A DNA stretch of 64,000 nucleotides from Seison nebaliae (Eukaryota), in NCBI GenBank assembly GCA_023231475.1, contig JALJEE010000107.1, forward strand, positions 1 through 64,000. Direction: 5' to 3'. The translations under genes and the position numbers were made by a program. This document shows, piece after piece, positions 361 to 62,900 of this stretch. Position 1 is the stretch's first letter, and the number at the start of each line of letters is the position of its first letter. Under the pieces are notes generated by a model that saw only the letters and a program-made list of their open reading frames with translations, had not been told where the DNA came from and made no database searches.

Positions 361-2882
361 GGAAGGGATGGACGATATCCTGGAGATTCTATTGAAAGAG
401 GAAGTTTGGGAAAAGGACCCTATGATCAAGGACAGAGACTATTAGATGGTCGACAACCTGATGATGGTTTAGGTGGCAGAGACGGTCTGCATTATCAAAT
501 GCCTAAACCGTTGAACGTACCAGATAAATCTTCTGTTCCTGGAATAGGAGATGATGATTTACAGAAATTACTATCTGATGCAGGTGTGTCGAAAGAATAC
601 GATCCCAATGCAAACATTCAATTACAACCGTTAGCTGAAGGATATGGAGATGATGGTAAGGGACCAGGATTCCATCCTCCCTCCGATCAAATGCCAATGA
701 ATCAATATCTCAATGAGATTGGAGAACCAATTCCAAGATGTTAGTAACTATTTGACTGCTATCGAATTGTACAACTTAATCTTTCTTTTTCTGTTTCTTC
801 TATTGTTGCTGACTCTTCTTCCAATCGACCATTCAACCAAAAACATCTTGCTGTAAATTGACCATATCTCATAATTCGCTTTATTGATTGATCTGCTAAA
901 CCCTCTATTTAATATGGATATAGCTGATGGATATTCTTCCGATTTAATTGATGACGACGATGGATTAAGTAAAAGTGAAGCGAAAAAATCTTTAGAAAAA
1001 TTATTGGAAAAATTGCAACCAGATCAAGGATTCGATCATGTCTTAATTGAACGATATATTCTCGATTATGTAATGCCGGAAGCAGAATATCTTTATCTTC
1101 CTTATACACTTCAATACAAGAATGTCATTAACGTTCTAGAACGAGAACGTCGTGTCAATAAGGAAAGTATCCAACAACAGGATATGTGGCAAACGACCAC
1201 AAGGAAATCTTATGAAACGTCATCGAAGAAGAGTGGACAAATGGTTCGTCAACGAGTTCCTCTTAGCGCCGCTCAAATGCCCATGAACGAGTTGGATGAA
1301 ACGCAAAAATTCTTCAACGAAAATACGTTCGATGACATTCTCTCAGCAATCGTCCAACAACCAAATGCTCAGCCACAAAATATTAAGACGAAAGTTAATC
1401 TGTTGCATGAGAGTTCCAATCCAGAAGATGACACTTCCATCAAAACGATGAACATGAGTAATTGGAATGACATTCTCTCATATTTCGATAACGACATAAC
1501 CGAACAGATATTCCCCAACAAATTCAATGTCACATTAGATGAATATACGAAACAATTACACAATTCTACAAATACTTCAGACACAATTATACAACCAATC
1601 AACAACAATCTTATGAATCAAACAAGTGAATTAACAACCACAAAAATTAACGGTGCATTACCTGACTCGTTGACAGGAGAATCTTCATCAAATGAAATTG
1701 CTCATTTCAGTCAGTTGCCAATGGATCAAATCGAATCGAATGAAATGAAAGAAGGAGACAATTCTAGTAGCGATTCTTCTCATTCCTTACTCACATATTA
1801 TGATAATTTCCTTAAAGAACGCGGTGAGAATGTTTCCGGATATTATATCGATGCAAATAATGATCAAATCATTAATTTACAACGACAACAAGAGCACGCT
1901 CTCAGAATGAATTCGATCAATAAAAAGGTTTGTATATCATCCGGTTGATTAGAATGTCAATCAACCCCTCTCCTTCCGTCGCCTAGAAACGAATTTTTTG
2001 GATAATTCTCCTTATTCGACGTATCAATTTTAATTCATTCATTCCATTCCATTCCATTCTACCAGAAACATTAGAATTCATTAGATATATATATATATAT
2101 TCAAATTTTTCATCAATCGAAATGATATAAGTCAAATTAAATTAAATGAGATGGAATATGAGAATTATTCTCAACGTCCTTCTCCTCCGAACAGTTCATA
2201 GATGTGTTTCACTTCACCATTTCACCAATAGCCGAAAAATAATTATTCACATTAAGATCCATTTCACTCCACTTCCATTATCCATTTCACTCCACTTCCA
2301 TTATCCATTTCCACAGATCATCGCTTTAGCACCAACTTTTTTATCTTGTTTTGCTCATCTTCTACTTTCCCCTTCATCATCCAGTATATCATGCCATCTA
2401 CCTCCTAATATCTAATAAATTCCATTTAGAGGAAACAGAAAACATTTTCGCAGAGATGTGGAAAGTAAATGAGATTTTAATCAAACCTTTTCATTTTGAT
2501 TATTTAGACGTTGAATTCGGTGAGTCAACAAGGCGACAATAATCCATTCAATGACACCACACCAGTAGATCTCGCAGCAAATATTGCCAATGTTTCGTCG
2601 ACCATCATCGAGAATCGTTCAACTTTTCTTCACAACAACGAAAAGTTGACGATGTGGCGAGAACATCAGCTACGAGCACCTCGTGCTGATACGAAGTTCG
2701 GACCGTATCGTCTAGTTCAACGTATCATTCGAACTCGAATCACAAGAACGACACGCCCAAGCAAATCGAATTTGAAACCATTATCTGTGAAAGATTCAAT
2801 TACAATTCATCGAACAAGAACGATAATGAATCCATCTTCTTGCTACGCGTTCCCACGATTTCAACGTGACGACACCAATTGA
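1..2882 (+). CDS. 5'-truncated orphan gene with Gly/Arg/Pro/Asp 21-aa repeats at the start; exons <1-739, 924-1927, 2508-2882
   Basis: ORFs 40..744, 884..1948 and 2511..2882 join in frame through GT-AG introns 740-923 (gttagt..atag, PIPR-S-DGYSS) and 1928-2507 (gtttgt..ttag, NKK|TLNSVS). No family recognised; the second join is the less certain. Confidence 0.6.
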
Positions 2883-3812
2883 CAATATTTGAATGACGAT
2901 CTTTTCTTTTCATATTCCTTTTAACCATTCTTTACCCTTCAATCTTTCCTTCATGCGATACACCACAATTAGAAACAATCTCTCGGACAAATCAATTGTC
3001 TTGCTGTAAATACGGTCAGCCCGGCAACCTTTCTATATTTCTCTTCAGAAGAATTCTCCTTTTTTTGTTATTGTTTTTTTGAAGAAAACAAAAAAAACAC
3101 AAATTTTTTGTCGATTTTTTCCATCGAACAAAATCTTATATGACAAACAATCCTTTCCAAATAGTAACAGCAGTTCCAACCAAATATAGCTTTCAATTAT
3201 TTCAATTCTCACTAAAAAACAAATAATTTTTTTCCATTCTTTTCCATTTTTTTCTCTTACATACAATATCAACTGAATAAGGTTTCCTTCCATCCAAATC
3301 TCCATTTCTTCGATTATCAACAATATCGTCGAAATGGTTTTTCTTCTTTTTTCATCTTTTACCCGTTCCTGATTTTAACGTTTTCTTAAGTTTTGTTTAT
3401 CTGTCTCAAAAAAAAAATTGACAATTCCTCGTCTAGCTTAGTTTTCTCATCATTTCTCTTCTCGACGATTTCCACTTTTTTGTTTTTGAAACCCATGCAC
3501 AACATACATACAAACAATTTTAGTGGAAATCTGCCATACCATTTTTACTAATTCTTTATTTTTCTACACTTTCTATCTCTACCACATAAATTCTTTAATG
3601 AATTTATTGAAAAAAAGAAACATTAATTGGTTCATCACCAACAAACATCAGCCAATTTCGTACCGTTAATTTATCGAAACAAGCTTTCTCTATTATCTCC
3701 CAATTTTTTTTCCATTTTAGTTCCTTTTCATTTTTACGTTCCATCGAAATATTTCAAAAATTTTGTTCGCCTAATAAAATTTAAATTAAACTTTTTTCTA
3801 TTCCATTTCCTA

Positions 3813-3813
<1 letters not shown>

Positions 3814-3844
<31 letters not shown>

Positions 3845-3845
3845 A
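3814..3845. repeat. (CAT)n microsatellite
   Basis: tcatcatcat... read directly. Confidence 0.9.
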
Positions 3846-3980
3846 TGATGATTTATTAATAATAGAAATTCAATTAAAATTATTGAAAAAGAGAATTGTG
3901 AAATTTAATAAGAATTTGATAAAAAATTATTCGGATATATTTATAAAGAATGAAATGAGAGGAAGAAGGAATTTTAATTG

Positions 3981-6749
3981 TCAAATCGATCTGGATATGT
4001 TCGCCACCATTTGCTGAAATAATTCGTCCGATTGAATAATCGGTTTATTGGCTGGTACGATGAGTAAGGTGACGATATATGAAGCAAGATTTGCAGCGAA
4101 GAATAACCAGAAGAACGTCCGGTCTATAATCAGTGCAATGAGACTCCATTCAAAAGCGAAAAAGTGAGCTGAAATTTGTTTCAATTGCTCCGTTGTCATC
4201 AAATGATATGGATCATTTTTTTTACTTTGTCGTCGCTTATCCAACAATTTGGTAACACTCAATGTTGTTCGACTGAAGGATGAGAATGATCTTCTTTCAG
4301 ACCATGAACGTTTGTGGGAAGTGGAGGAACGTCGATTTAAATTCTTTAATTCGAAAGCATTCGTTGAGCCATTTCGAAGTATTTCAGGAAAATTTTTCTT
4401 CTTTCCACGACAAATCAATTGAGAATTTTGTAAGAAATTGCGTAGGGATTGAAGTAGAAATGTAAAATATCTATGAGATTTGCTTGTATGTCTACTCTTC
4501 CTCACCATATTATCGATACAAGCTCGACTCATACGCATATCTTTTGGGAAATCATAACTGGGACAAGAAGTGATAAGACGTTGCGCCGCATTACTACATA
4601 AAAAATTCTCCAAATGAACAATATCAGCTGATGGTGGATGATGAGCTCTCATTCCAGTAACAGTGATCATTTCTTCGTCTGATCGATTTATGTTCATTAA
4701 GTCACTTCCCGTACTGAGACGATTTGTCGAATTGTTCTGGATCAATTGACGATTTTCATTTGAATTTTGTAAAGAATTTCGATTATTAAAATTTTGTGAT
4801 GGCACTTGTAAATGTTGGTTGGTGAGATTCATACCATTCTCACTTGAAACGAATCGACGCGTTAACGATTTCTCTTTATCGAATATATTGTTGAGATTTT
4901 CGGAAAGATCTCGTTCCAATTTCACTTTATGATGCTCTCGCAATTTCCTCCTTCGACGTTTCAACAATCCTTTCAACAACTGATAATGAAGTTCTTGTCT
5001 CAGTTCGATGTTCAATGTGATAACTTTCTCGAAAACGTCGTTAGCTGATAGTTTCGTATCTAATTTGACTTCTTTCTGTAACTAAAAATATAAAGAAAAG
5101 AATAAAAATAGAATTTCCATCAATCGTTTCAACACAAACGGTTCAACACCACGACTAACAAATTCAGTTATTCGATCTTGTATATCTTGTTGCATTAAGA
5201 GAATGTGTGCTAATGAATGAAATGCGAAATATCTCAATGAAGAGGGTGCGCGAACACTAGTGGTCATATTTGAAGTAGCCCTCGACTGCATATTCGTCGC
5301 TATGACTGCCATAATGATGGAAACAGAAGTTAAACTCATTACAGCAGTTAAATAAATACCTAAATTGGAGTGAAAGAATGAATGAATTGAAGAGAATGAA
5401 TGAATGAAAGAAACCGATTATAGGAAGGATTTCGGATGTGGCCGGCACTTTCTCCGCAATCATCAACATAAATACACTGAAGGCAACGAAACATGTAAGT
5501 CCGAGTGTGACCTTCTCACCGGAATATGTTGGCAACCAGAAACTCATCAATGTCAACGAAGATAACATGACACAGGGAACGATAACATTGAAAATATAAT
5601 ATGGCGTTCTTCGACTTATTGTCAAATTGTAAATGAGTTCGGGATATGGTTCTTGAGGACAACATGGATAATATTTGACGTTTTCTTTCACAACCACATT
5701 CTGAAGAATCCATCCGCCATTGTCCATATAACTCTTGAGATCATAACCATCGTTCGACTTTGTAAAATTAACTTGAAGACCCGAATAGATCCAAGATGCG
5801 AAACTGAAATTCAAAATAAATTTTTTATAAAATTTTCCAATAACAAATGGGATGGAACCGAATGGAACATGTTTGATCATCGAATGGGAAATATGTGATA
5901 TCGACTTTGCATGATGATTTCATTTTTAATGGTACCGGATAAAAAATGGTTCCATTCCGATATAACATAACATACGGACCATTTATCGCTCCATGTGTCA
6001 CATCATCGGCACTTGAAATTTTGTTGTAAGAATTCGAATACACATTCTGAAAACGAACCTGTTATACATATACGTGTCAGGTAACCAGACTTTGGACGAT
6101 GGTAATCTGATGGTTCGAATATGAGCGAATTCATCATCCCAAAATAAATTGTCATCTTTCCACGTTTGTTCCACCCAAACATTTATCGTTAATATTTGAT
6201 TTCTCTCATTCTATTCATTTTCAATAAATTTTTGGAGAATTATTTATAAATTATTCGGAAGAGATCATTAAAATTCAAAAGCAATATGAAAGAAACGTTT
6301 CAAAGAATTAAAATGGAAACCAAATCAATAATTTGACTCAAACGGATATTAAATTTGACGCTGATTGATGTAGACGCATTGAGTACGGGTCTGACTGATG
6401 GATCATAATAATATATCAGATTGGTATATAATCGATGTTCATCAGTTTCTAATTGGAAAATTAATTATATTTTATAGAAGATTAATGCAAAATTTGAGGA
6501 ACTTGTTTTATTTGTGAGATCATCAAATTCGGTGGAATTTCCAATAGCTTCATCATCTTCTTGAACAAAATTATCAGTGTAATAAGGACTATTTTCGAAG
6601 TGTTGATCGTTGTCAATTATCTCATCCGAATCTTCTTCGGTGAATGATGGATTGTCGTCCATCGTCTCACTTCCATCAACATCGAAGGATAATACATGTA
6701 CTATCGTCGTCATAAGAACGATGAGAGAAATGTGACTATTCAATTTCAT
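3981..6749 (-). CDS. Nicotinic acetylcholine receptor alpha-type subunit (Cys-loop channel, predicted cation-selective); introns 6449-6502, 6211-6320, 6012-6058, 5804-5858, 5360-5414 and 5082-(5147 or 5159)
   Basis: Signal-peptide-like N-terminus; DEHRLY; SQIIDL|NERNQILTINVW; VWLPDTYMYN; Cys-loop CKVDITYFPFDDQTC; loop C YYPCC; M1 YYIFNVIVPC; M2 GEKVTLGLT; M4 EWSLIALIIDRTFFWLF. Confidence 0.95.
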
Positions 6750-11697: not shown

Positions 11698-12692
11698 TTA
11701 TTTGCGACGACCATTCGAACGGTTTGGTGAAGACGATGAACTTCCATAAGAACTAAGACTTGATAAGGAAGATGTAGCTCTTTTCCGACTTCTTTCCTTC
11801 GATTTATTATTATCTCTTCCATTCTTCTCTTTACTATCTTTCTTCGTGCCATTAGTCTTCTTTCCTTGCATCGAGTCGTCATCATCTGAATTATTCGCAT
11901 AAATATGAGGTGGTGGTGTTGGTCGTCGTTCGTTGTCGGACGAATCTTTTCTACGATCTTTATTTTTTCCATTTTGTCGATCTTTCCGATAAGCACCAAA
12001 TGAATTTCCATCTCCTTTATCATGTTTTCGATTATATCGTTCTGATTTCTCTTCTATTTCATTCGATTCTTTATAAAAATCGATTTTCACTTCCGTCGCA
12101 TCAATCATTCCTAGAAATAAATTGGACAATATTTATTTGAAAATATTAATTAGAAAAATCGATTACCTCCGTCCATAAAATTCTTCGCATTTTCCGCATC
12201 TTTTGGTGACGAATATTCGATGACAGCATGTCCCGCATGAAGAAACGAATGATATTTTCTTTTTGGCATATCAATATTGGAAATGACACCATAATTCTTA
12301 AAAATTTCCATGAGATGATTATGATTGACATTGGGAGTGAGATTGGTGACTTTTATCCTTTTTTCTTGATCTATTTGTCAATGAAGAAAATTCCATTAAA
12401 ATAATTTTATGAACAATCTAGAAAATATCTAAACTTTCTTCTTTTCCATCGGAATCGTCATCTGATTTATGATCATTATGCAGCGAATTCGAATGACCAT
12501 CATATCGACGTTTCTCATTTTCATATTTCGAATAACTTGTTTTCCATGTATGAGATGAACGTTTCTTCTCAATCGAATCACCTTTCTCATGCTCTTCCGA
12601 AGATGAGATTGGAGAACTACTACGATCTAAAAATTAGAATTATCAAATGAATAAAATAAAAAGAATTAACAACTTTTTGACGCTTCCAACAT
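11698..12692 (-). CDS. RNPS1: RNA-binding protein with serine-rich domain 1 (EJC/ASAP-associated RRM protein); introns 12627-12673, 12371-12434, 12111-12166
   Basis: The spliced frame, missed by the ORF track, reads RIKVTNLTPNVNHNHLMEIFKNYGVISNIDMPKRKYHSFLHAGHAVIEYSSPKDAENAKNFMDGG|MIDATEV, matching the RNPS1-type RRM (..MEIF..IDMP..MDGGQID). It is followed by an R/K/S/P-rich tail. Confidence 0.85.
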
Positions 12693-14712: not shown

Positions 14713-16452
14713 ATGGAACAAATGGATATCCAGTCTCTATTAGAGTCGGATGACGATTCGAACTCGAACGAACATACTCTTTTGTTATCCAGTTCCAATC
14801 AAGTAATCGTCACCAACGAATCAACAGATGAAGTATCAATCTGGAAGAAATGGAAATTGATTGATACACAAAAGAAATTTTGTTTCTTCTTCGCTTGTAT
14901 TCTCTCCTTCTCCACCAGTTTGATGTATGGATTATTAATTCCATTCTTCCCAATAAACGTTCGTATTTTCTGATCTATTTCAATTGTATATTGATGACTC
15001 TTTTCCGTTTGTGTTAGGCCTACTCCAAAGGATGTTCTTTTAGTGACATCGGATATTTCTTCTTTATTTATGAAGGAGCATTTGTCGTCGCTTCATTGAC
15101 TATTGGAAGATATGTTAAATTTTTTCTTTTCTAATTATTTTCCTTATTTTCTGATAGTTATCACATTTAGGAGTGAAATTCACCGTCGTCTCCGCAACTT
15201 TCTTTCATGCAACTACTACAATTTTATTCGGTCTCGTCATCTATTCTAAGCCTGGACTCACTTTCAAATTATTGACATTCATCATTCGAACGTTCGAAGG
15301 ATTCGCCTGTGGCGCTTTCGTCACATCAGCAACGACGATGTTAACAAGTCTCTTCACAGATGATATGTCTAAATTTATGGTGTTTTTCCTTTTAATTTAT
15401 TAATGAAATTTATTTTTTAGGGAATTCAAGAATTCTTCTTTAGTTTAGGAATGATGACTTCACCAATCATCGGAGGATGGATCTATGAAGTTCATTTCTA
15501 TCCATTTCAATTATTTTATCTTGTTAAACAATATTATATTTAATAAGAAATGTGGTTTCTCTGCACCGTTTTATATCGTCGGAATTTTCGAACTTATTCT
15601 CATGATTTTCACATTCAAATTTATGCCCTCAATTAAACGTTAGTCAAATAATATTTCGTTCATTCTCTCAATTCATTTTCAGCTACACAAAGTGCGGGAA
15701 ATGATTTTGATAAGAAAATTCTAAAATTTTTTGTATCACCCGAAATTTTATTTAGTGTATTTCTTGTGGCATTAGTTTCTTTTGGTTTCGGTTATCTCGA
15801 TCCCACTTTCCAATTAATCGTTGCAAAAGTTTTTTTTATTTTATTTTTTTTTAATTACTCTTTCCCCCTCCCCTCAGTTTTCCAATAGTTCATCAACTGC
15901 TGGTTTGTTGTTCGGATCGTCATGTATACTTTATGGTTTATTGACGCCAATTATTGGTTTATATGTCGATAGACATTTGCCACGTGTAATCTGGTTCTTG
16001 GTGATTGGTGGGATTTTATCTGGTTTCGGTTTCTTATTATTATCTCCATGGCACGTCGTTTTTTTCTGGCTACATCGAAACATGGTGATGTTATGTATAT
16101 CGATGGTTTTATTTGGAATTGGATTCGCATTAATTTCCATTCCAACGTTAACATACATCAACAAGATGGCTGAGTTTCCATTCTTTCCTTCTAAACTATC
16201 TATATAATTATAACTACAACTTCTTTAATTAGACAAAAAGGCTTTCAAATGTCTTTTCAACTTCAAGGAACATTGGCCGGTGTATTTAATGCGGCAATGG
16301 CGATGGGCTTCGCTTTCGGTCCTATTTATGGTGGAGTTGCTGTAGATACGATCGGACTACAATTGTCTAGTTCCATTATCGGTTTCGGAGTACTCTTATG
16401 TACTCTCTTCCTAATTGTAAGTTATTTCATTTCAATAAGAGCGCGCACTTAA
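14713..16452 (+). CDS. MFS transporter, SLC18B1-like (vesicular amine/polyamine transporter family); introns 14959-15017, 15114-15157, 15380-15420, 15490-15547, 15639-15682, 15829-15877, 16174-16232
   Basis: Continuous multi-TM frame after splicing, with LLIPFFP, IRTFEGF, GMMTSPIIGGWIYE|KCGFSAPF, GYLDPT and GFAFGPIYGG. Confidence 0.85.
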
Positions 16453-16880: not shown

Positions 16881-16952
16881 GGTTCTATGGTGTAGCGGTG
16901 AGCACTCTGGACTTTGAATCCAGCGACCCGAGTTCGAATCTCGGTAGGACCT
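16881..16952 (+). tRNA. tRNA-Gln (anticodon TTG)
   Basis: GGTTCTA/TAGGACC acceptor stem; A-box TGGTGTAGCGG; anticodon arm CTGGA-CTTTGAA-TCCAG with TTG at 16914-16916; T arm CCGAG-TTCGAAT-CTCGG; TTTT just downstream. Confidence 0.97.
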
Positions 16953-35529: not shown

Positions 35530-38500
35530 CTAATCGGAATCGGGAGTTAGTTGTTCGTGTTTTCCCCATGGATGGTCCGAATGGTTATATTCATTCAACA
35601 AATTTCCACTAGATTTCATCGGAGAAGAAGTTTTTTGTGATTTTAAAGTTGAATTATTTAGAATAAAAGTAGTCGAATTTGTTTGGCGATCTTGAGTGGG
35701 ACTATCTTTTGTGAAAATGGAATAGAATTGTTTAATGAATGAATTGGTAAATGTTCGCTTTGGAGATAATAGAGATAAGAATGACGTTCCATTGTTTGAC
35801 ACAACTCCAAATATGTGGGCTAGAAAATTGATATAAAACGGTTCCAATGTCAACACGTTCTTATCATTCAATAAATCAATTTTTACAGTGACATTATCAC
35901 GAATGTTTTTCGCGTCTGTGACGTTTTTCAAAATATTGTCATCTTTTATTGATTCAGTTGATATTAGCTTATCTTCATTTCCGGTTGGTTCTTTCAAAAT
36001 ACTAACAGACGTAACATTTTCAATTTCTGAAATAATAGTAGTGGAAGAATCGGTTGTGGTTATATATGTCACGTTGTCAATTGTAAGATTTCTACCGACG
36101 TCTTTATTACTTGTTCCATTACTTAAATTGTTATCAGTGGAATTTTTTGAGCTTAACAATTTGTTGGAAGTTTTAGAACTCTTTGTTTCGTTTAAAGTAA
36201 TGTTCTTCAGTTCATCTTTTACTTTGCTGAATTTTTGAAATTTGGAAGTCAATGTAGAAGACTTAATTATTGGATGATTGGAAAAGTTATTTGTAGTTTT
36301 AATAGCATTATGAGGATAAGAAGTAGTGTAATTATTTTTGAAAATATTTCCGTTAACTAATGTCCATTCTGAGTGTCTCTGCGTCTCTGAGTTGTTTGGT
36401 TTGAAAGTGGTGGTGTCTATTAAATGAGAGTCGTTGAAGTAAAATTTAGAATGTTTGTCATGAAATTCATTTTCAAATTTTCCAGTATTTGACAATCCGT
36501 CAAACCCTTTGGATGATACATTAGGTTTATGGGTGAATGGGAACGTCCAATTATCAGCATAATTCATTGTGAATAAACTATTTGATAGTGGTAATGTAAA
36601 TTTAAGGGGTTTGTCTTTATTTCTGGTTGTTTTCAATAAAGTCGCTCGGCTAATAAAATTATCATTTAATTTTTGAGAAGTTTCAGGTGTCTCTAGTTCT
36701 TTAATGGCATTGGTTGAATATGAGGTATTAATATAGGGGAACAACTTAGGAGTTTGTGTTGTTGATGACGTCAAAGATACCACGTTATTATTAGTTGACA
36801 TGTTGAATAAATTTTGAATAATATTCCCATTATTTTCACTTGTTTTATAATTCGAAAAATTATTATTTCGGACGAAATTGACTTTTGTTGTTGCGATGCC
36901 AAATTCTTCGTCATACCAACTAGTGGAATATAACGGTTTGTCGTGTGGACTAAATTTGGTCGTCAAATATTCTTGGTATATTTCAGCTGGAAAGGTAGAA
37001 GTAGTTTCCTGAACTTTATTTAAATTATGAGTTGTATTAATCTTTATTGATACAATTGTAGTTGTTGCTTCTTTTTTCCTTTTTTCTGTAGTTGGTGTTG
37101 AACCCTTTATATCTCCTGTCATATTTGATTCGACAGTTGTAGAGGTAATATTATTTGAGAATTTTTGGATTTCTTTAATAAGATCATTCGCCCCAAAATA
37201 ACTTGGACAATTTAATTCGTTAAAAATTATTTTTCGCAATTTCTCCATTAATTTCTCATTAGTCGTTCTATCAAAATCACTTGCTTCAACCACCTTCTTT
37301 ATTATCAAAAATATAGAAATAGCATTTTCACAATTTCTGTCAAATTCTGGCTTGATCAAATTTCGTAAACTTGTAGATGTTATGGTAGAATAATAGGAAA
37401 CACTGTTTGTTGTTGTCTGTCGATTGAAATTGGATAAACCTTGAATGATAGGCAATATCGAATTCATCAGATGATTAATTTTTTCATATTTATCAGTATC
37501 GTTAAATTTTGTAATCGATTCTTGCAGTTGAGTTGTTGCGTTTTGGAAGAAAAATTCCTCCATTAATTTACTTGTGACGTTGTGAGTTGTAGTCGATGAA
37601 ATATTAAAAATTTCAGTGGGATAAATTGTTTGAATTATATCTGGTTCCGGTGTTGTCCAATTAATAAAATTATCATAGTTATTTTGTAAAATTTTTGGAT
37701 TTCGGGAATTATTTCGAATGTTATTAGTCGATTGAACATTATCAGATGTTGTATGTAAAATATCTCCAGATCTAAAATTGAAGAAATATTATTTAACGGA
37801 ACTAAAGACATTTTTAAAAAATTAAACAAATCCTGAAGAAACTCTACGTTAGTGAATGGTAAGGTATCGTTTGGTTTAAATGAAGTAGTTGATAGGTGAT
37901 TTGAAAAATGGTTTAACGTGTCTTCTTCCATTTCTTGATTATCGGTTTGGTTTAAATGGAGTGTAAAATTTTCAAAAAATTTCCATATTTCCAATAAATA
38001 TTTCTTCTCTTTCTCATTTTTATTTTCTTCAAATTGGTCATTAATTATAGTTTTGTTTCTCTCAATTTCATGATGGTCATTTGGATGAGTGGCTAAAGAA
38101 TCTGTTGTTGTTTCAGAAACTGTTGCAGAATTATTAGTATTGTGAAAAATGTTATTATATTTCAATAATTTCCCTGAAAATTGTGTTGAGGTTGTAGTAT
38201 GTGACATTTTCAAAGTAGTTTTTGTAATTAATGTTGTGGTTCTTTCTTGTTCTTCGACTAGAGATGACATATATTGCATCGTTGAGAGTGTTGTTGACGT
38301 ATTACTTGTGCCATTTTTTATAATTGTGGGGATAGTTTTCTTGAATAATTTCGTTGTTTTGATGATATCAGACGTATTGTACAATATCGTGCTTATTATT
38401 GTTGGTATTGTTGTTACTGGTGGTGTGGTTATCATTGGTATGGCTGTTGTTGTTAACATTGGTTTTGTTGGTGTAGTTGTTGTCATTGGTTTAACTGTTG

Positions 38501-41018: not shown

Positions 41019-44000
41019 ATGAATGATTTTTATCTCGATCTTGAAAATTATCAAAGAATACGTGTCAGTTCAGCATGGCACGACGATTATCTGAGTAGAG
41101 TATTATCTAAACTTAATTCTAGTGATTCAGAATCCACGACTTATAATTTGGAAGAAAATAATCAATTAACGGAAGAAAGTTCTGAATTTAAATATGAATC
41201 CAGATTCAAAAGATTTTCCCAAAACATCTATCGGAAATTTTCCAGTTTCCCATCTAATATCAGAAAAAAACTTCATCGTAATCTGAACAATGAGAGGAAA
41301 GTAAGTCATCCATTTATCTATGTCTCATCTCGTAATCGAGAGCATTTGATGTTGAAGAAGCATTATTTGGAAACTAAAGGAAGAATGAAAGGAAGGATAA
41401 TATCTGATATAAATTTGGAAACTGATATATCTTTTTCTGATGATTCGACAAAAAACGATACTTTACCCTTTACTGATTCTCAGTCATCAGAAATTATTCA
41501 TATCAACGTCAATAAAAAGAATGATAGCTGGTGGAAAATACTTGATGATAATAACAACAATAATAAGATGATCTGTGGAGATGAAAATTTGAAAAAAGAA
41601 GAAACATGTAAAAACATTAATAATAACAATAATAACCAAAATGAGAATCAGATAAGACCGAAAGGTCATCGGAAAAGTCGCAGTATTAGATCGGACCGAC
41701 GTATCAATGAAATTGGCGGTAGTGTTGCTGAAACGGTAAGCGAAACTAGTGCATTAACAACTTTATATTCGACCGCTCCTTATACACGATCAGCAAATAG
41801 TAGAAAATCCAAGTTAAGATTTAAATATCATATGAATTCAATATTTGATAATACTTCATAGTAGAAAGAAAACAGTTAAATGGAAGAAGATTTTACACGT
41901 TCTATCAGTGCTCTTAACGTTAAGTAGTTTGATATTGAGTGTTTCAACTATAGTTAAACATGCGGCAAATAAATATAAAAACTCAAAGTATTGGGATGAA
42001 AACGCTTCAAATGTTCATTAAATATTTCACTTTATTTCTTTCTAACTCCTTCAGTATTTTGCAGTAATTTGGTTAGATCAACGTCGATCTTATATTGAAT
42101 TGATTCGATGGAAACCGATATTTCAAAATAAAGATTTTCATTCACATATCGATCGGGAGAGGGCTCTCCGCAATTGGCTCCTCAATCCGAAACCGTCAAG
42201 ATTTGTCAAAATTATTTTCAACTGCAAAATTGGTTCATGACTTTTGCTCATAAAATCTTGTCAATAAATCTCATTCGAAATTGTAGGAGACGTCCTTCGT
42301 ACCCATAAACACTTGGTCCAATTCTTTAAGGGTTATTATAATAATGTCAAAGAGTGTGTATCGTCTCTTAACAATTATATCGATCGAAATCTACGTCGTC
42401 ATAGTGATCTTAAGATCCTGTATGATAATCGGGTAGCCACATTTTACACAATGGCTTTAGATACTGAATGGTTGAAATTGTTACTAATTTCATTTTATTT
42501 TCAAAAATTTGTCATAAAACTATTGAAAGACGATCGGCTTGGTTACGAACTGAAACATTTACAATGATCAGAACGCTAGTGAAAGTTTTAGGTAAATCGG
42601 TGAACGAAATTAATCAACATACCATCGAAATTCCAGTAAACATTTTTTCATTCAACTAAATTAATTTATTGTGGTTAGGTTATTGAAATTGGTCCTTATC
42701 TTTCCTCTTTAAATGATTGGATAACTGTCAATTATAAATATGATGCTTTCAAGGAAAGAGTCAAAAGAATTCTTGAGGGATTTGCCAAATATAGTTGTCA
42801 TGAGAAAAATGAAAAAAACGCTATCGCTTGCGATGAATTATCTCATGTTGACGATACGAAAGGTTTCGATCTCATTCGAATTTTGTACAATTCAAAAAGT
42901 GTATACAATCGATGGTTGACTAAATTGTTGCATGGGAAAAATCTAAAAAATAATTTTCCACCTCCATATATCTTGCGGAAGTTATATCGATTTGAAATTT
43001 CAATAATGGAAAATTCGAAGTATTACAATGTCTTGTCAACCCAAGCTCAACAAGTTGTACTTATAAAAAATGTTGCCCCTTCGGAAAAACCTCCGAAATA
43101 TTATTATTTTGTCGAATCGTTATATGATCTACTCGATCCCCATCGCAATTTTACAAAACGCCATTTTATTTTACCCGAGAACTTACGGAAACATCCCATA
43201 ATTTTTGCAACTGCTTTTGGAATGGCAGATATCTTGAAATTAAATCATATTTCATGTTCTACACCTGAAGTTTTCATACAGGATTACCTTCTTTATCTTG
43301 CTAATCGCGAGCATAACAAGATAAATGGCGTTTTCATGTTATTCAAAAGAAAGGAATTGGTGATAAAAGATCCGTGCATATTCATAAAAAATAGTAAATA
43401 TCAAATAGAACTTAATCGGAGTTTCTTAATGAAAGAACGAAATTGTTCCGATCATAGAACAGTTAAAGTTCCGATTTATTGTCTCGCTAATTGTACATTA
43501 AAAAATTTTATATATTTCTTATAGTTTAAACTGAGAACTTATCGACATTTCTATTTAGTTCCTGATCATAATACATCAATGGAGAAATGCTGGAAAGCTG
43601 TCCATCCACATTTCTTTCCTAATTTACCAAACTTCTGTAAGATGTTCAACATGAAAAAAGAATTCAATTGCACAGGAACAATGAAGGAGAATTACGCTTA
43701 TATTGCCGACAGTTACACAACAAATAAATTAATAGTTATGATTTATTTTCAAAAGTTTCAGAATTTTAATATTTTACAATAGTTAGGAGTTAAATTCTCA
43801 GCAATAATATCGAAATTCGTTTCTATAAATTCACAAAGTGAAAACGATCTACATGTGATCTCATCAAAAGAATTGAAAATGCAAATATGGAAACAATGTT
43901 TCTCTCACGATTTCACAGGTTCGTCAAACATTAACCAATTGCTCAATCGACATTATTTAGAAAGATATGAAAATGTATTGGAAAAAAAGAAAATCATTCA

Positions 44001-44427
44001 TTTGTCATTCGGCTATTTATCTTCTTTGGACGATGCACGCTCTCGGTTATCATAATGAAGAGAGATGGAAGAAAGTTTATTTTCAGCGAAATAAAGTTTC
44101 AATTTTTTAGTAAATGATAAAATAAATATTTATTTCACAATAAATATTCAGGTAACGATTTTAAGTGGACCACTAGCAATGGACATACATGTCCAAAGAT
44201 ATTCTGGTCATTTCTTACCATTTCCAATATTTCAATCAATGACTCCACAAAAATATGTGTATGAACCAATATTCCGATTTCGCTTATTCTTCGCTCACAT
44301 ATTCTACGCATTACTAATAGCTATGCTTATCGCAATAACCATCGTTTATCTGCATGCGAGGAATGGTTATATTCCAGGATTCCCAAAAAAGAAGAAAAAG
44401 GTAAGGTTTACGGCAACGAAGAATTGA
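41019..44427 (+). CDS. Highly degenerate CD39/GDA1 (E-NTPDase)-like two-TM protein; introns 41813-41861, 42013-42054, 42233-42286, 42480-42529, 42636-42678, 43468-43524, 43735-43782, 43919-43964, 44096-44151
   Basis: Nine 42-57 nt GT-AG introns link the fragmentary ORFs into one frame with an N-proximal TM (ILHVLSVLLTLSSLILSVSTIV) and a C-terminal TM (LFFAHIFYALLIAMLIAITIVYL). NTPDase-like landmarks fall in the expected order: YFAVIW..IRW, WITVNY, KDPC, ICHSAIYLLWTMHALGY..W..VYF. Confidence 0.6.
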
Positions 44428-44758
44428 AATGGAATTGTAGATGAATCAATTATTTTTTATTGATTACTAAACCATCGTCATATTGAAATCAATAAACGAA
44501 GATATCAATTTCCTAATTAGCTTCAAATAGAATACAACTAATTAATTGGTCAAAAAAATAGGATGTTGTTTGTCAGTTAATTGATTTGTCACTAAATTGA
44601 ATTGATTATACGATCAATTTTTTCAGTTGACGATGTCACTTTTTCAATTGATTGAATCAATGTGACATTTCCCCCCTTTCCCATTTCACTATAAAAACTA
44701 AACGAAATAATCTTAAATTATCTAGTTCAATTATCATTCTACAAGAACAATCTCTAAA

Positions 44759-46468: not shown

Positions 46469-48758
46469 ATGCAATTTATAGATGGACGAACTGGTCAAGT
46501 CATCGATCCCACTATTGTTCGCGAAACATTTGGAATCCAAGGTTAGAGTCAAAATGCTGCTATTACAAAAACGACATAACGATGAGGAAAAAGGTCAATA
46601 GACGAAGAGGACGAAGAAGAGTTGAAAGCAAATAAGGCGAATGTAGATGGTAAATCCAATATTTTAATTAGTTTCAACAAAAACAAGAAAAGGAAACGAA
46701 CATGTCTTAATTTCACTCGAAGAACAAATAGGAATAGCACTTTATTATGATTATTATTATTATTCGAGAAGGTATGAACGGAACATAAGAAACAAATAGG
46801 AAAAGAAACTTCTATGAAGTACCTAATCTTAACTAGAAATTAGAAGGCAAAAAATTTATGAACGTAAATTTTAATGATGTTTAAGAAAATTGTATAGTAC
46901 GTAATGATGAAGAATTACCTGATTGAAATAGAAGTTTCATTAAGAAGAATTAGAAATATTATGACGAATAAAATTTGTTATTTTTTTTATGGAGAAATTT
47001 TGTGTTAAGAGAACCAATTAGGTGAACATGGAATCACTTTAGAAAGAAACTTTTCAAGAGATTAATTTATTTTCTTTTAGAAATGATGAAATTCCATTAC
47101 TTTTCCTATAATTTCACTCTTTAATTATTGATGTAACAGATCCGAATACATACCAACAACAAGAACAACGACAATCATTTGCAAATAATGACCAGGCAAC
47201 AAATTATTCGCAACAACAACTACCGTATTTAGGAGAAGAGAATAATTTGCAAGTAACACAGCAACAAGGTGATTTCAATAATAATTATATTGATCAAAAA
47301 ACTGCCACCGAATATAACGATCAAATTCAAGAGAGCCAATTCATGAAAAGTGGTAATTTCGATTCGTTTAATGATCAACAATATCAGCAAAATATGGAAA
47401 ATCATCGAATAACTCCAATATCGAATGGTGATGGAAATAATCCGCAATTATATTCCCAATCTCAAACACACGAACATTATCCGCCACCTCCCCAACCGTC
47501 AAACAATTCGATTGACAATCAAATATCGGAAAAGATAACGACATATGTGAAAACGTTCGATCCGAAAGGTAAAGAAGTTGTTGAAGAACATGTCGAATAT
47601 CGACCTTTATCACCGACAACTTTAAATGTAATCAAAGAGAATCCGATGGCACAATCCAAACTTCAGAATTCTTCAATCGTCTTAGAATCCCAACAACGAA
47701 ATAATTTGAATATTGATAAAATTGATTCATATCGTCAAATATTTGATGGCCATAAAAAGACGATTAAAGAAATCGAATCAACTGATATACAACCAGCCGG
47801 TGTTCGATCCAAACATCATAATTTCAGCACACCATTCGCTGTTGGTGGTAATCTGAGCAAGAATCGACGATTGTCAGCTTATCATGACAAATTTAAAAAG
47901 AAGAATGGTCAAAAGAAAGATTTGTCATCTAATGAACAATATGATCAATATCATCAACAACAACCCCAACAACCGTCGATACCGTTTAATTATGATGAAG
48001 ATAAAACAAATATGGAAGGAGATCCATCAATTCCTTATTATGATCCGAAATCGATAACGTATGTGAAGACTGATAAGAATAGTTTGTTCATGAGACCAAA
48101 ATTAGATCCGTCAGCATTACGTATGGCTGGTGTCCAATCGGGACCTAAAATTCAAGGAGCACCATTTGCTTTAGGTGGAGCATTTCAACAATATGGTCGA
48201 GAACAAAGAAAAACAATTCCTCATCATACAGCAGGAAAACCGACAACAGGACGCATTGTTGGAGCTCCATTTGCAACTGGTCATACTTTTATGAAATATA
48301 AATTTTTAGAGAGAAATGGCAATCCATTATCGCGAAAGAATGTTATAGATCTATCACAAAAACGAGAGATCATTAATTATGATAATGAACGTCAAAAATA
48401 TTATAATGAACCTGACAAATTTAGACCAAAAGTCGTCATAGAACCAAATGAAACTAATGTCGGTGTTAAATTAACACCAAGACGGCAAAGTAATCATAAT
48501 CAATCACATTCAAATCGTTTCGATTCACAATATACATCGAATGAAGCACTGCATCAAAATCATCCAGCACAACATCAACCACCATACCAGACACAAAGTT
48601 TCAGCGATTTACCAAACAATTTTTCGAACGATAACAATAACAACAACGGAAATAATACTAAATCGTTAACGGATCAATATTTCCATTATCAGAATCAGAA
48701 GATGGCAGAATCGTATGATAAACCGTTTAATGGAAATACGAATTCCATTGTCTATTAA
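46469..48758 (+). CDS. Orphan Q/N-rich protein with three PFAxG motifs; exons 46469-46541 and 47140-48758
   Basis: MQFIDGRTGQVIDPTIVRETFGIQ splices (gttaga..aacag) in frame into the 503-aa ORF. Confidence 0.65.
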
Positions 48759-48981: not shown

Positions 48982-49377
48982 TTAGAAATCGTCATCTCCA
49001 AACATACCACCCATATCCATGTCTTCATCATCCTCTTCCTCCTCTTCTTCTTTAACTTCTTCTTTCTTTTCTGCATCGGCAGAAGGAGCGGCACCACCAG
49101 CTGAAGCAGCAGCTCCACCAGCAGATACTCCCATTGATCCGACACGTTGCATTCCTTATAAAGGGAAAAATAAAGAATTAATTAGTTTGGATTAAGCTGA
49201 AAAACCTTCAGAAATTAATTCTTCCAAATCTTTCCCGTTTAATTCATCAACAATTTTTTTGGCACATTCCTCTTCGAATGTTCCATCGATAGCTCCGATG
49301 ACTTTCTTGATATCGCCGACTTGGATGTTTGAGTTGCCACTAAGAGCTAATAACATATATGCACTGAGATATTGCAT
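48982..49377 (-). CDS. RPLP2: 60S acidic ribosomal protein P2; intron 49155-49205
   Basis: MQYLSAYMLLALSGN..DIKKVI..ELNGKDLEELISEG|MQRVGS, an Ala/Gly hinge and an acidic tail. Confidence 0.93.
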
Positions 49378-51119: not shown

Positions 51120-51150
<31 letters not shown>

Positions 51151-54491: not shown

Positions 54492-57400
54492 ATGGTTTCC
54501 ATTAATCTTCTCTATCTCTAATTCTTCAATTCATTCAATTTTATATAGGCACAACAAGAGTCATATCGAGAGGCGACAAAGCCTTCCGGTCAGAATGCGA
54601 AGAAGAAAGGAAAGAAAAAGAATCAGATGGAAGATCTCAAGAAAGAGTTGGAGATGGAAGATCATAGATTATCTCCGGAAGAACTCTTCGCCAAATATGA
54701 AGTGGATAAAACGACAGTTTAAATTTTCATTAATTTCATCTCTCAATAATTTATAAAAAACTCATTTTTAAAGGGATTGAGTGATAATGAAGCAAGAATT
54801 CGATTAGATCGAGATGGACCGAATGCCCTCTCCCCACCAAAAACTACACCGGAATGGGTCAAATTTTGTAAGCAGTTATTTGGCGGTTTTTCCATGTTGT
54901 TGTGGGCTGGAGCAATTCTTTGTTATATTGCTTATACCATCCAAGTGACGACGTTAGAAGAAGCACCGAAAGATAATATTTATTTGGGAATTATTCTAAC
55001 TGGTGTTGTCATTTTAACCGGAATCTTTTCATATTACCAAGAAGCTAAATCATCAAGAATTATGGAATCATTTAAGAATATGGTGCCCCAATTCGCTTTA
55101 GTATTGAGACAGGGTGAGAAGAAGAATTTGCGAGCAGAAGAATTGGTCATTGGTGATATAATCGACATTAAAAGTGGAGATCGTATTCCTGCCGATATTC
55201 GAGTATTGAAAGCACAAGGATTAAAAGTGGACAATTCCTCTCTAACTGGTGAATCGGAACCGCAATCTCGTGGTCCAGATAATACGAATGATAATCCATT
55301 GGAAACTCGATGTCTCGCTTTCTTCTCTACGAATTGTGTTGAAGGAAATGCAACCGGTCTTGTTATTCGATGTGGTGACAATACAGTCATGGGACGTATT
55401 GCTAATTTGACTTCCAATTTGGATAGTGGACAAACGCCAATTTCAAGAGAAATCGATCATTTCATTCACATCATTTCTGGTGTAGCTATCTTCCTCGGTG
55501 TATCATTCTTTATTATCGCCAAGAGTCTCCAATATCGATGGTTGGATGCTGTCATTTTTTTGATCGGAATTATTGTAGCGAATGTACCTGAAGGATTATT
55601 GGCAACTGTCACTGTCTGTTTGACATTGACAGCGAAGAGAATGGCAAGAAAGAATTGTCTTGTGAAGAATTTGGAAGCTGTCGAAACATTAGGATCTACA
55701 TCGACTATTTGCTCTGATAAAACAGGAACATTGACACAAAATCGTATGACGGTGGCACATATGTGGTTCGATAATAATATCATCGAAGCTGATACGACAG
55801 AAGATCAAAGTGGAAATACATTTAATCGAAAAGCATTCGGATGGATCGCATTGTCACGATGTGCACAATTATGTAATCGTGCTGAATTTAAAACGGAAGC
55901 AGATAATATGTCCAAACCAGTCCTTCAACGAGAATGTAATGGTGATGCATCAGAATCAGCTTTATTGAAATGTGTCGAATTATCATCAGGAAATGTGAGT
56001 AGATATCGTCAAAGTAATCCAAAGATTGCTGAAATTCCTTTCAATTCAACGAACAAATATCAAGTTTCTATTCATCGAACAGATGATGGAGATCCAAGAT
56101 TCTTATTAGTAATGAAAGGAGCACCTGAACGAATTCTTGAACGTTGTAGTACCATTTTCATCGACAACGAAGAACAACCATTAGATGATGCATGGAAAGC
56201 GAAATTTGAAGAAGCATATATCAATCTTGGAGGTTTAGGAGAACGTGTCTTAGGTTTTTGTGATTTTCGATTACCACAAGACAAATTCCATCCCAAATAT
56301 GCGTTCGATGTTGATGATGTAAATTTTCCATTAGAAGAATTTCGTTTCTTAGGATTAATGTCTATGATTGATCCACCTCGTGCTGCTGTACCTGGTGCTG
56401 TATCGAAATGTCGATCAGCTGGTATCAAAATTATTATGGTAACAGGAGATCATCCAATTACTGCACATGCCATTGCTAAATCTGTTGGAATAATTTCTCC
56501 AAACAGTGAGACACCGGAAGATATGGCAAAACGATTAGGAAAGAATGTGAACGAAATTGACCATAGTAAATGTAGTGCGGCAGTTATTCATGGAAATGAT
56601 TTGAAGAATTATTCACCCTCAGATATCGATGATGTATTGAAAACACATGCAGAAATCGTTTTTGCTAGAACGTCACCACAACAGAAATTGATTATTGTCG
56701 AAGGTTGTCAACGACAGGGACAAATCGTCGCTGTAACTGGTGATGGTGTCAATGATTCACCAGCATTAAAGAAAGCTGATATCGGCGTTGCTATGGGTAT
56801 CGCTGGTTCAGATGTGAGTAAACAAGCTGCCGATATGATTCTCTTGGATGATAATTTCGCTTCAATTGTAGTCGGAGTAGAAGAAGGTTTCATTTGACTT
56901 TTTTAAAATTTTTTTAATAATTTTTTAAAAAATTTTTAAAAAATTTTAAGGTCGTTTAATTTTCGATAATTTGAAGAAATCGATCGCTTATACATTAACA
57001 TCGAATATTCCCGAAATCACACCGTTTTTGGTGTTCATCGTTTCAGATATTCCTCTTCCTTTGGGAACTGTAACAATTCTATGTATCGATTTGGGAACTG
57101 ATCTCTTCCCAGCTATTTCTTTGGCGTACGAGAAAGCGGAAACAGATATTATGAGAAGAAAACCTCGTGATCCAATCAATGATAAATTGGTCAATCAACG
57201 TCTCATTTCCATCACTTACGGTCAAATCGGTTTCATTCAGGTTATAATTAAAATTTAAGAAAATATTTTCAAAAAATTTTTCTCTTATTTTTTTGAAGGC
57301 AACTGCCGGTTTCTTTGCCTATACGGTAATTATGGCAGAAAATGGATTTTGGCCAAGTCGTTTATTTGGAATTCGTGCCGCTTGGGACTCGTCAGCAATT

Positions 57401-57936
57401 AACGATTTAGAAGATTCTTATGGACAAGTTAATTATTTCATTTTTTTTCCAGTTCTTATTCTAGACATTTAAAGGAATGGACATTTCAACAACGAAAAAC
57501 ATTAGAATATACTTGTCATACAGCTTTCTTCGTCTCCATCGTTATCGTACAATGGACCGATTTGCTTATTTGTAAAACGAGACGTCTCTCAATCTTACAA
57601 CAAGGAATGAAGTTAATAATTTTTGATAGAAAATTTAAAAATTTTATAATTTTCCTTTTTTAATAGAAATCATGTGATGACATTCGCCTTATTCTTCGAA
57701 ACAGCACTTGCTGCTTTCTTGGCATATTGTCCCGGTATGGATAAAGTTTGTCTATTTATTAATTCTTTCTCATTTTATTATTAATCCAATAGGGTATTCA
57801 TATGTATCCGTTACGTGCATCTTGGTGGTTACCAGCACTACCCTTCTGCATAATAATATTGATTTATGATGAAGTACGTAAATATCTAATAAGAAAGAAT
57901 CCTCACGGATGGGTAGAACAGGAAACGTACTACTAG
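54492..57936 (+). CDS. ATP1A: Na+/K+-ATPase alpha subunit (P-type IIC); introns 54495-54548, 54717-54773, 56887-56950, 57241-57298, 57428-57474, 57612-57666, 57746-57792
   Basis: [64 protein letters not shown], and C-terminal ETYY. The M1-M2 loop keeps Q and N at the cardiac-glycoside-sensitivity positions. Confidence 0.98.
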
Positions 57937-59951: not shown

Positions 59952-62900
59952 TTATAAGAAAGTTGTCTTCATTTTAGATGAGAGTTGAAGTTTCTTGTTT
60001 TTGTTTGTGTTAAGAATTCGAATTTGTGAGATACGTTTATCAATTTGTTCGATATTAAATAGTGGCGGCGATGATGAATCTTTAGTTTCTTTTAGTGATG
60101 AAGATGCTGGATTGGAATCAGTCAAAGTTACATCTACATCGCTTGGTTGTATGGCTGCTAACGGTGCTCCATATTTCTGTTTCAGTGGCAAATAAGTTGA
60201 GGTAGACAATTTTTGTGGTTTGTTTTTCTTTGAAGAAAATTGTGTCTCTTTTATGGGATCATCTAAAGCGGTTAAATCCACATCATTTAAAGTACCAGAA
60301 GTATTTTTATGATGAATTTCCACACTAATGTTACTTGTTTCTGATTCGGCTAAATTTCGTTTAGACATTTCAATGGAAGACGGTAATGTCGTTTTCTGAG
60401 GTTGGGATGAGAGAGAATTGGATGATTCAATGGAAGTTGTGTAATTCATTCCACTTAATTGCTTAGCAGTTGATGGTTGATCGTTTGTTCGCTGTTGGTC
60501 TTTACCTAACACGATTGATGTGGAAGTGTTATAGAGACGATGAGCAAATTGTGATACATCTCTGATTGATGATCTTAGTTGATGGTTTTTCATATTTTTC
60601 GAATTAGCAGTTCTCTGGTTATCTTCGTTGCTATAGCGATGAGGACATGAAGGTAAATGATAATGTGCTGGCGATTTGATAATTTTCAAAGAATCAATTT
60701 CATCAATAAATGCACGTGAATGTTTTGAAGATTTCTTATATTTTTGCCTTTTACACGTCACATCGAAATGTTGGAGAAGGTTAGACGATGTTGCATCTTC
60801 CTTATATTTTTTGAGTAATTTAAGACGATCTTTTCCTTTGATGGATAAGAGATTTTCTGATGATTTCAAAATATCATCAATATTTTCACTCATATCATTG
60901 ATTTGTTGACGAATGTCTTCAACCTTTTGAGAATTAATTGTTGATAAACTTTCGGATTTGGACGGACGACCCTTGAATATCATATCTTTCCCAATCGATC
61001 CGTTATATGAATCGATATTTGACCTTTCTATCAGATTATCATTCTCATCCAATGACATGATAACCGCCATTTGTTCAGCTTCTTCTTGTTCATCATCTTC
61101 CTCTTCACGTCGTTCATCTTCAGTATTCATTGTCAGAAATCGTAATACCAATAAATTTACACAAGAAGCAACAACGGTAAGACCGAACAATATGAAGATT
61201 AATGAGAAAGTGACATAAGAAGGATTTGCTTCTAATGCACTCTCTCGTTGAAGAGCAACATAATCACCAAATCCGATTGTTGTTAGAGTAATGAAACAAT
61301 AATAAATACAATCGAAATAATGCCAATCTTCATAATATGCAAATGCGCCCGCACCACTTGTTATGACAATGATTGATAACATTCCACTAATTATAACCAA
61401 TTCACTTTGAGTTACTTCTTGTCGCGGTCTATCCAATTGTCGTTTTATCTTTAATAGTTTCATTAAAAAGTTTAATATTTCAAATGAAAATTTACTAACT
61501 TGAATAACTATCCAACTGACTAATGCATTTAACCGTTCACCAACACTGTGGAACATCACCAAACAAAGAGGAATTCCTGCCATCGCATATGCCATACAAA
61601 ATAATTTACCACCAACTGTTTTCGGTGTTGTATGTCCATATCCTAATTTTGGAAGTAAATTAAAAAGGAAGGAAGAAATCTAAGATAAACCGATGGTAGT
61701 TATGACGGTTGTTGAAAAGTAAAAGGCTCCCGCAAACCTCCATTGGATACCTGTATTATGGAAACCGGCTTTTAACGCCGTTTGTTCTAATAGATGTAGA
61801 TCGTCTTCTGATATATTGTATAGTCCAGTTATTCGAATTTGAGATTTTCTTACACGATCCTGATTTTGAATTTCTTGTTGTGACTCGAGTGCATCGAAGA
61901 CGGCCGCTCCAATCAATAGATAAGTAAATGTACAAATGATGAGACTAAATGTTCGGACGTTCTGTTTCTTCATGCCAAACGAGAAGAATTTTCCATTCAA
62001 AACATTTCGGATACATTTCAAATAGAAATTTGATTTTGAATATTTACTATTTGATATTTCGTTGTTCGGTCGAAACTGATGACAACAGACTGATGTATTT
62101 TGTAATGGATGATCACCACAATGTGAATGATGGGGTTGATGATGTTGGAGAATGGACAATGATGGACGATGAGATATATTGTCTGTAGTAACCGATGATT
62201 TTTTTGGTGGTATATTATCATTAATAATCGAACAATGTTGACTGCTAATTGATATTTTTGCACGACGACTTGACATATTCGAATCGTTTAAACTCATTTT
62301 TCTTTGAAATAATTCATTGGATGGAACTGATGAATCAATGATCTTATTACACGTGATAACTGACGATGCTTCTGTTGATGATCTTTTTGATGTAAATAAA
62401 CTTCTTTTGTGTGTCAGAATGTTTGCTGGTTTTTGCGACGGTACCGAATAATCATTCTTGATAGATGAACAATAACCACTGAAATTATCGGTCATATAAC
62501 TTTGATTTGATATCGATGGTTTACCATATCTTAATGTATAACGTTGTGCATCCGTTAACGGTTTTCTATAAGCGCGACTTTTCTTTGGTCGACCCATATG
62601 TTGTTGTTGTTGATAGATTAAACAATTACGACATGGTTGAGTACTGATGGATGAAGTCTTCACTGGTTCGATGGTTTTCCTCATTCTCATATTATCATCC
62701 GTAGAAATTACAGATGATGACGTTATTATGGAATTGAGTATTTCACTTCTCTTAAATTGATTTGAATGCTTTTGATGATAATAATGATGATGTTGATAGT
62801 GATGTTGTGAAGGATGTTGTGGACAATGATTCTTCTGATGTAATATGGTTGATTCGTCACCGGAACCATATTTATCAGTTGACGTATAATTCCCTTGTTC

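Follow-up and report, generated by a model that had tools for sequence, protein, structure and literature searches.

In a 64-kb window of the Seison nebaliae genome (positions 1 to 64,000 of contig JALJEE010000107.1, the whole stretch of DNA analysed here), the introns display a strong preference for U as the third intron letter at the 5' splice site, or donor (+3), that goes beyond base composition. We rebuilt gene models for 12 genes carrying 43 introns, each gene giving one open frame; the intron boundaries are predictions from reading frame, protein homology and NCBI gene models. The set comprises the 38 introns of an earlier note on this DNA, a sixth intron in a nicotinic acetylcholine receptor (nAChR) gene and four introns in orphan genes. 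All 43 introns have GT...AG ends that restore the coding frame, and the +3 letter is T in 40, A in two and G in one (95% interval for T 81-99%). Purines occupy +3 in 3/43 donors, or 5/45 when two further introns annotated by NCBI are included, and R-A-G at +3 to +5 occurs in none of the 43. GTT is the only or the predominant donor in 11 of the 12 genes, the RNPS1-like gene standing at 2/3.

The G+C content of the window is ~31%, and the earlier note had reasoned that such AT richness would supply about as many A as T at +3. That null does not match the measured background, in which T follows GT at 41% of the 5575 GT sites in the window and A at 22%. T is found after GT at 39% of sites in non-coding DNA and 33% in coding DNA, at 24/53 GTs within introns and at 36/92 decoy GTs close to donors. 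The excess of T at +3 persisted under all nulls applied, with P = 9e-13 against a null of 0.41 and P = 5e-8 against 0.55. Adding the NCBI GTAAGT and GTAAGG donors leaves GTT at 40/45 (21/24 within the three annotated genes), and including all weak candidates leaves it at 42/49; the lower 95% bound for the T share is 73-81%, well above composition, while one 64-kb window cannot set the genome-wide share of GTT.

The counts in the earlier note, 35/38 donors with T at +3 and 8/38 with G at +5, were reproduced exactly, all 38 donors being present in their genes with open frames, and its remark that many donors lack an exonic G at -1 agrees with our recount (-1 G in 16/38). Its statement that no donor reads GTAAGT holds for the rebuilt set and fails against the annotation, since NCBI places a GTAAGT donor at 41301. 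Four of the five orphan-gene GTT introns that it listed (donors at 740, 30256, 37842 and 46542) join long frames, whereas the donor at 1928 gave no join to a downstream frame of >60 codons in a search up to 2560. Two more candidate donors, both GTA (2465 and 30797), came from the ab initio model only.

Judged by single-donor, ab initio, homology-ranking and NCBI-model checks, the GTT excess does not appear to be a calling bias. Only one frame-compatible GT lies within 30 nucleotides (nt) in 24 introns, 22 of which are GTT (P = 3e-7), and in the worst case, where a non-GTT donor is chosen wherever feasible, GTT still accounts for 28/43 (P = 0.001). A coding-potential model given GT/GC and AG signals only called GTT in 22/28 introns, some of them misplaced. 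For the 13 introns of the Na/K-ATPase and nAChR genes, junctions were ranked with profiles from non-Seison homologues: the chosen junction came first in 12, all GTT, and the best non-GTT alternative, where one exists, scored 13-82 bits lower (14-74 bits for the ATPase alone). Three of these 12 introns have no feasible non-GTT donor, hence the ranking is uninformative on +3 there, and it did not settle the junction of nAChR intron 6. The same ranking applied to three arthropod-like control loci, two of them near-duplicates, gave GTA in 7/8 introns. Three NCBI-annotated Seison genes (SNEBB_001932, SNEBB_001938 and SNEBB_001941) match the window letter for letter, their annotated proteins lying on a single contig of 75,956 bases. 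Across the three, 21 rebuilt introns recur in the NCBI models, which imply the first intron of the ATPase too. Two NCBI isoforms that differ at a tandem acceptor suggest transcript input to the annotation. Reads of one sequencing run labelled as possibly RNA span introns and contain no joint that skips one, and two other runs gave no coverage, which speaks neither for nor against splicing.

Genes carrying the introns

The three annotated genes hold 22 of the rebuilt introns. The nAChR alpha subunit gene (3981..6713, minus strand), to which SNEBB_001932 maps exactly, has six introns, with donors at 6502 (GTTCCT), 6320 (GTTTCC), 6058 (GTTCGT), 5858 (GTTCCA) and 5414 (GTTTCT) that ranked first against the non-Seison profile, and a sixth at 5159 (GTTAGT). 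The Na/K-ATPase alpha gene (54492..57936, plus strand) has seven, at 54495 (GTTTCC), 54717 (GTTTAA), 56887 (GTTTCA), 57241 (GTTATA), 57428 (GTTAAT), 57612 (GTTAAT) and 57746 (GTTTGT). SNEBB_001941 fixes introns 2-7 exactly and the long exon is a 100% match to an NCBI Seison nebaliae protein; the first donor follows a lone ATG and is the nearest of five candidates.

All nine introns of a gene at 41019..44427 (plus strand) are reproduced by SNEBB_001938, with donors at 41813 (GTTAAG), 42013 (GTTCAT), 42233 (GTTCAT), 42480 (GTTACT), 42636 (GTAAAC, non-GTT), 43468 (GTTCCG), 43735 (GTTATG), 43919 (GTTCGT) and 44096 (GTTTCA); the label 'NTPDase-like' that this gene had been given found no Pfam support. 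Two extra plus-strand introns appear here in NCBI models only. One (41301..41357, donor GTAAGT) is 57 nt long, in frame and stop-free, and lies beyond the reach of frame or homology checks. The other (44401..44725, donor GTAAGG) bypasses the stop that follows a C-terminal hydrophobic stretch and fuses a 225-codon frame (44726-45400) to the gene, which NCBI extends over 41019-45403; this intron and fusion may be a prediction artefact. Both GTAAG introns may be either real or the product of the predictor's prior. The two NCBI isoforms of this gene differ at a tandem TAG-TAG acceptor at 41861/41864.

The remaining genes were identified from homology and open frames. An RNPS1-like gene (11698..12692, minus strand) has an open frame and three introns, with donors at 12673 (GTTGTT, uncertain), 12434 (GTTTAG) and 12166 (GTAATC, non-GTT), and the similarity of its RRM exon to RNPS1 extends as far as the GTAATC donor. 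A 461-residue open frame at 14713..16452 (plus strand), two of whose exons could be aligned with a PDB entry for SLC18B1, encodes an SLC18B1-like MFS transporter and is interrupted by seven introns, with donors at 14959 (GTTCGT), 15114 (GTTAAA), 15380 (GTGTTT, non-GTT), 15490 (GTTCAT), 15639 (GTTAGT), 15829 (GTTTTT) and 16174 (GTTTCC). No annotated Seison protein matched its MFS exons in a search that was weak, and the gene may have been overlooked by the annotation. A T-box gene (25595..28167, plus strand) with the Pfam T-box pieces in order and an open frame has four introns, at 26628 (GTTTAT), 26791 (GTTCGT), 27513 (GTTAGT) and 27636 (GTTCAA), where non-GTT donors are not feasible; the last of these introns is stop-free, and its retention is possible. 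The single RPLP2 intron (49155..49205, minus strand, GTTTTT) has one feasible donor and separates exons that carry Pfam Ribosomal_60s positions 2-42 and 45-88. A TASK-like K2P channel gene (59952..63026, minus strand) has donors at 61690 (GTTTAT) and 61499 (GTTAGT), the latter opening a stop-free intron of 51 nt, which amounts to exactly a 17-residue insertion relative to KCNK3. In this frame of 991 residues the channel domain is preceded by ~350 additional in-frame codons and followed by a long C-terminal tail.

Four introns fall in orphan genes. That at 740..923 (plus strand, GTTAGT, 184 nt) joins two long frames through the only feasible GT donor, as does that at 30102..30256 (minus strand, donor 30256, GTTTCT), which also has a single feasible donor. 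The intron at 37772..37842 (minus strand, donor 37842, GTTTCT) joins frames of 682 and 752 codons, and both of its feasible donors are GTT. The fourth (46542..47139, plus strand, GTTAGA, 598 nt) was placed by the ab initio model with GT-only donors.

The window also holds a tandem 60-base coding repeat at positions 1-420 (plus strand), encoding a Gly/Arg/Pro/Asp-rich unit of 20 residues with which an orphan gene begins; a 1605-codon open frame at 19094-23911 (plus strand) that has no Pfam match and, possibly, a short exon further upstream whose donor at 19042 reads GTTAAA; and a tRNA gene at 16881-16952 (plus strand), whose anticodon is TTG (Gln) by sequence.

Donor anatomy and pairing register

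Apart from +3, the donors belong to ordinary short major-type GT-AG introns, 37/43 of which are 41-64 nt long. The minor spliceosome uses U12-type donors with the extended motif RTATCCTT, and this is absent from all donors here. Acceptors are TAG in 24 introns, AAG in 10, CAG in nine and GAG in none. Five branch-point motifs were tried and none exceeds shuffles. Exons end in AG at 10/43 junctions, with -1 G at 17/43 and -2 A at 29/43.

Using GTT sites in non-coding DNA as the expectation, +4 is close to background apart from scarce G (1 vs 7.1 expected): A occurs in 13/40 GTT donors (10.4 expected), and U is not enriched (15 vs 13.7). Position +5 avoids T (5 vs 13.4) and is mildly raised in G and C, with +5 G in 11/43 donors, and +6 favours T (25 vs 14.6). 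The strict hexamer GTTTGT occurs in 1/43. A five-fold enrichment of GTTNGT (10 vs 2.0 expected) together with the absence of GTTNNGT (0 vs 1.8) indicates pairing in the standard register, in which +5G/+6T donors form a minority class, commoner where -1 is a pyrimidine (5/8 vs 5/35; P = 0.01, one of two tables tried). GTTTC occurs in eight of the 40 GTT donors (3.1 expected; P = 0.01, one of 16 dinucleotides), at 6320, 5414, 16174, 30256, 37842, 44096, 54495 and 56887, and these are a possible second donor class.

Roca and Krainer reportedly described shifted-register 5' splice sites with GUU donors. If U1 small nuclear RNA (snRNA) paired in this way, one base out of register or with a bulge (GTT-AAG-T type), which happens at rare human sites, GTT donors in Seison would be accounted for. 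Four donors have +6 G, all with A at -1, as this would favour. Such sites, however, need an AAGU block one base further in, which is absent from the window, and besides the lack of GTTNNGT, neither GTTAAG (1 vs 0.5) nor +6 G (4 vs 6.2) departs from expectation in a way that would favour it. Shifted-register pairing is largely refuted in the window, and we give it a negligible chance of explaining these donors.

It is also very improbable that the introns were recent products of a mobile element that has GTT at its end, or that a preference for GTT led the reader to mis-call them. The boundaries are predictions, and three of the four control intron positions compared are absent from the Seison ATPase, both of which this explanation would accommodate. 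The 39 introns <120 nt, however, are no more similar to one another than shuffles (best 37 vs 35.6), junction repeats never exceed 5 nt and the introns are not a repeat family. The +3-blind ab initio model, the homology ranking and the NCBI models mostly agree on the donors, and the ranking that returned GTT here returned GTA in all but one of the control introns. One of the four positions, that of Seison ATPase intron 2, is shared with an arthropod-like locus; the intron starts with GTAAGT in that locus and with GTTTAA in Seison, which means that conversion has affected at least one old donor.

Candidate changes in donor recognition

The earlier note took the donors to imply an altered snRNA or protein-based recognition. 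A changed recognition step is a reasonable inference, given that the +3 preference is non-compositional, that Entamoeba provides a precedent and that a published gene table offers a lead on METTL16. The interpretation is partly supported, but the introns are canonical GT-AG, pair in the standard register and include GTA and GTG donors in use.

In Entamoeba the donors read GUUUGU(U), U1 has co-evolved with them (ACAAAC) and U6 has not changed (Roy and Bowser, bioRxiv 10.1101/2022.06.08.495308). Seison and Entamoeba both have GT-AG introns in which +3 is almost always U and the register is the standard one; the U6 ACAGA box can pair with U+3. The two differ in that Entamoeba is intron-poor and uses a strict hexamer (88-90% GUUUGU), whereas Seison is an animal that fixes only +3 and has several introns per gene, and the U1 change shown in Entamoeba is only predicted for Seison. 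An Rfam scan of the window returned one tRNA and one chance match and no snRNA. U1-like pattern scans elsewhere gave 0 matches in viral contigs and 50 in prokaryote genomes, which look like chance.

METTL16 places N6-methyladenosine (m6A) on the U6 base facing donor +4 (PMC10581693, PMC11347140). In yeasts its loss tracks a switch to +4U, while U1 and U6 stay as they were (PMC10581693), and C. elegans mett-10 mutants lose the GURAG/+4A class (PMC11347140). In the available part of a published BUSCO table, METTL16 is 'Missing' in Seison only and present in 24/25 syndermatans (PMC12256650 supplement), a lead that points to its loss in Seison; PRP8, SNRNP27, KIN17, PRP6, PRP31, RBM22 and most other core factors are complete (PMC12256650). 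The same table lists SNRNP40, SPF45, LSm2 and USB1 as missing in Seison and present in both acanthocephalans, and ZMAT5, consulted as a sign of the minor spliceosome, as missing in all three (PMC12256650). Seison resembles Saccharomycotina (PMC10581693) and C. elegans mett-10 (PMC11347140) in that the GURAG/+4A class is lost and METTL16 is apparently absent. In those systems, however, donors come to favour +4U or an exon that ends in AG, with a purine still at +3, while Seison has background +4, exon-end AG at 10/43 junctions and U at +3; the Saccharomycotina switch from +4A to +4U is linked to METTL16 and SNRNP27K (PMC10581693), and SNRNP27 is present in Seison. Fritillaria borealis is an animal in which a donor change accompanies reduced U6 methylation, as may be the case in Seison, but 95% of its introns escape GT-AG, with G enriched, whereas Seison keeps GT-AG and fixes U+3 (PMC13326754).

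Loss of METTL16 would fit both the missing RAG donors and the flat profile at +4, but not the fixed U at +3, because S. cerevisiae lacks METTL16 and yet commonly uses GUAUGU (PMC10581693; bioRxiv 10.1101/2022.06.08.495308); U at +3 therefore calls for a second change. Given this, the flat +4 and the U1 change of Entamoeba, the one published +3U lineage that we found, we tentatively prefer, at somewhat less than an even chance, a two-part model of a major spliceosome with a shifted donor code. The +4A (GURAG) preference would be relaxed through loss of METTL16, unmethylated U6 ceasing to favour GURAG donors, and U at +3 would be recognised by pairing directly with U1 snRNA, for which A at position 6 is predicted, as in Entamoeba. 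An unchanged U6 ACAGA box would tolerate U+3, an argument that Roy and Bowser make for Entamoeba, and an intron length of ~50 nt may provide much of the remaining information.

Close behind stands a model in which U1 is canonical and U+3 arises at the U6 step, which we regard as a serious, if less probable, contender. Without m6A the ACAGA box would no longer contact +4A, leaving a G-U wobble to U+3 as its best pairing, assisted by altered proteins near the helix (SNRNP27, PRP8, U1-C, LUC7). The BUSCO entry for METTL16 suits this model (PMC12256650), as do the yeast donors that changed without snRNA change (PMC10581693), the two example switches for the C. elegans mett-10 mutant, both of which go to GUU donors (PMC11347140), the tie between lower U6 m6A and altered donors in Fritillaria (PMC13326754) and the continued function of GTA donors. 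It is harder to reconcile with S. cerevisiae, which lacks METTL16 and retains A at +3 (PMC10581693; bioRxiv 10.1101/2022.06.08.495308), and with the unenriched +4U in the window. Donors are also separated from decoys less well by canonical U1 than by U1 with A6 (area under the curve 0.74 vs 0.86), although this comparison is circular and restates the +3 signal.

Several observations weigh against the two-part model. Three well-placed non-GTT donors (GTAATC, GTAAAC and GTGTTT) are in use, and the NCBI models contain GTAAGT and GTAAGG as well. If METTL16 were lost, +4U would be expected, but it shows no enrichment here. Of the 526 genes that the BUSCO table records for Neoechinorhynchus, 76 (~14%) are missing in Seison, which makes a 'Missing' entry weak, and 5/34 splicing-related rows examined are missing in Seison and present in both acanthocephalans (PMC12256650). 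U1 is unchanged in 227 yeasts, Thecamonas and Mamiellales (bioRxiv 10.1101/2022.06.08.495308, PMC10581693), and both Fritillaria U1 versions carry identical 5' ends (PMC13326754). Donor-like words in coding DNA give a mixed result: in 30 kb of coding sequence GTRAG is not depleted (24 vs 20.3 expected), which suits the model, whereas AGGTR is (14 vs 29.3), as though GTR were still recognised after AG, with the caveat that GTA is depleted on both strands. Finally, two low-depth contigs from a ~15% divergent lineage end their alignment at 56888, with 5 and 1 letters remaining. Ending at +2 of ATPase intron 3, they hint at a non-T +3 in that lineage, a hint from one site in one sample and two assemblies, inferred from alignment ends. 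The same lineage apparently retains an AAG acceptor at 57474; AAG closes 4/7 ATPase introns.

In bdelloids and some nematodes, GTT donors occur commonly. Such donors could be an older rotifer or Syndermata trait, or a mild genome-wide bias that the window overstates, and no Seison-specific change in machinery would then be needed. A metagenome scan with the Rotaria ATPase (best 78 of 509 loci) gave nine loci with a rotifer best match, all intronless, so that with no rotifer introns to compare the trait may predate Seison. The 64-kb scope and the possible non-T donor of the divergent lineage also leave room for this explanation; the consistency of GTT across 11 of the 12 genes and a lower bound for its share far exceeding composition make it rather unlikely.

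We found no report of a donor consensus for Seison or rotifers, or of an animal +3U case, in the open-access literature, subscription papers and most supplements being outside our scope, and the available portions of PMC8351084, PMC10125929, PMC11347168, PMC7310846 and PMC12256650 do not describe one; large intron databases might already contain a Seison donor logo. Donor +3 is a purine in most eukaryotes, and the sole published exception that we found is an intron-poor amoeba. A further possibility, to which we give clearly less than an even chance, is that Seison, first among animals, uses across its genome a GUU donor code that is read by a U1 with a rewritten 5' end and coupled to a natural loss of METTL16, with GT-AG kept in an intron-bearing genome. 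If true, an animal that fixes U+3 while +4 and +5 decay would show that donor reading by U1 and U6 can be re-coded without intron loss, and would offer a natural animal loss of METTL16 with which to probe the U6 m6A model, which rests on work in plants, yeasts and worms. Gene finders whose priors expect GTRAG may overlook Seison genes or splice them wrongly.

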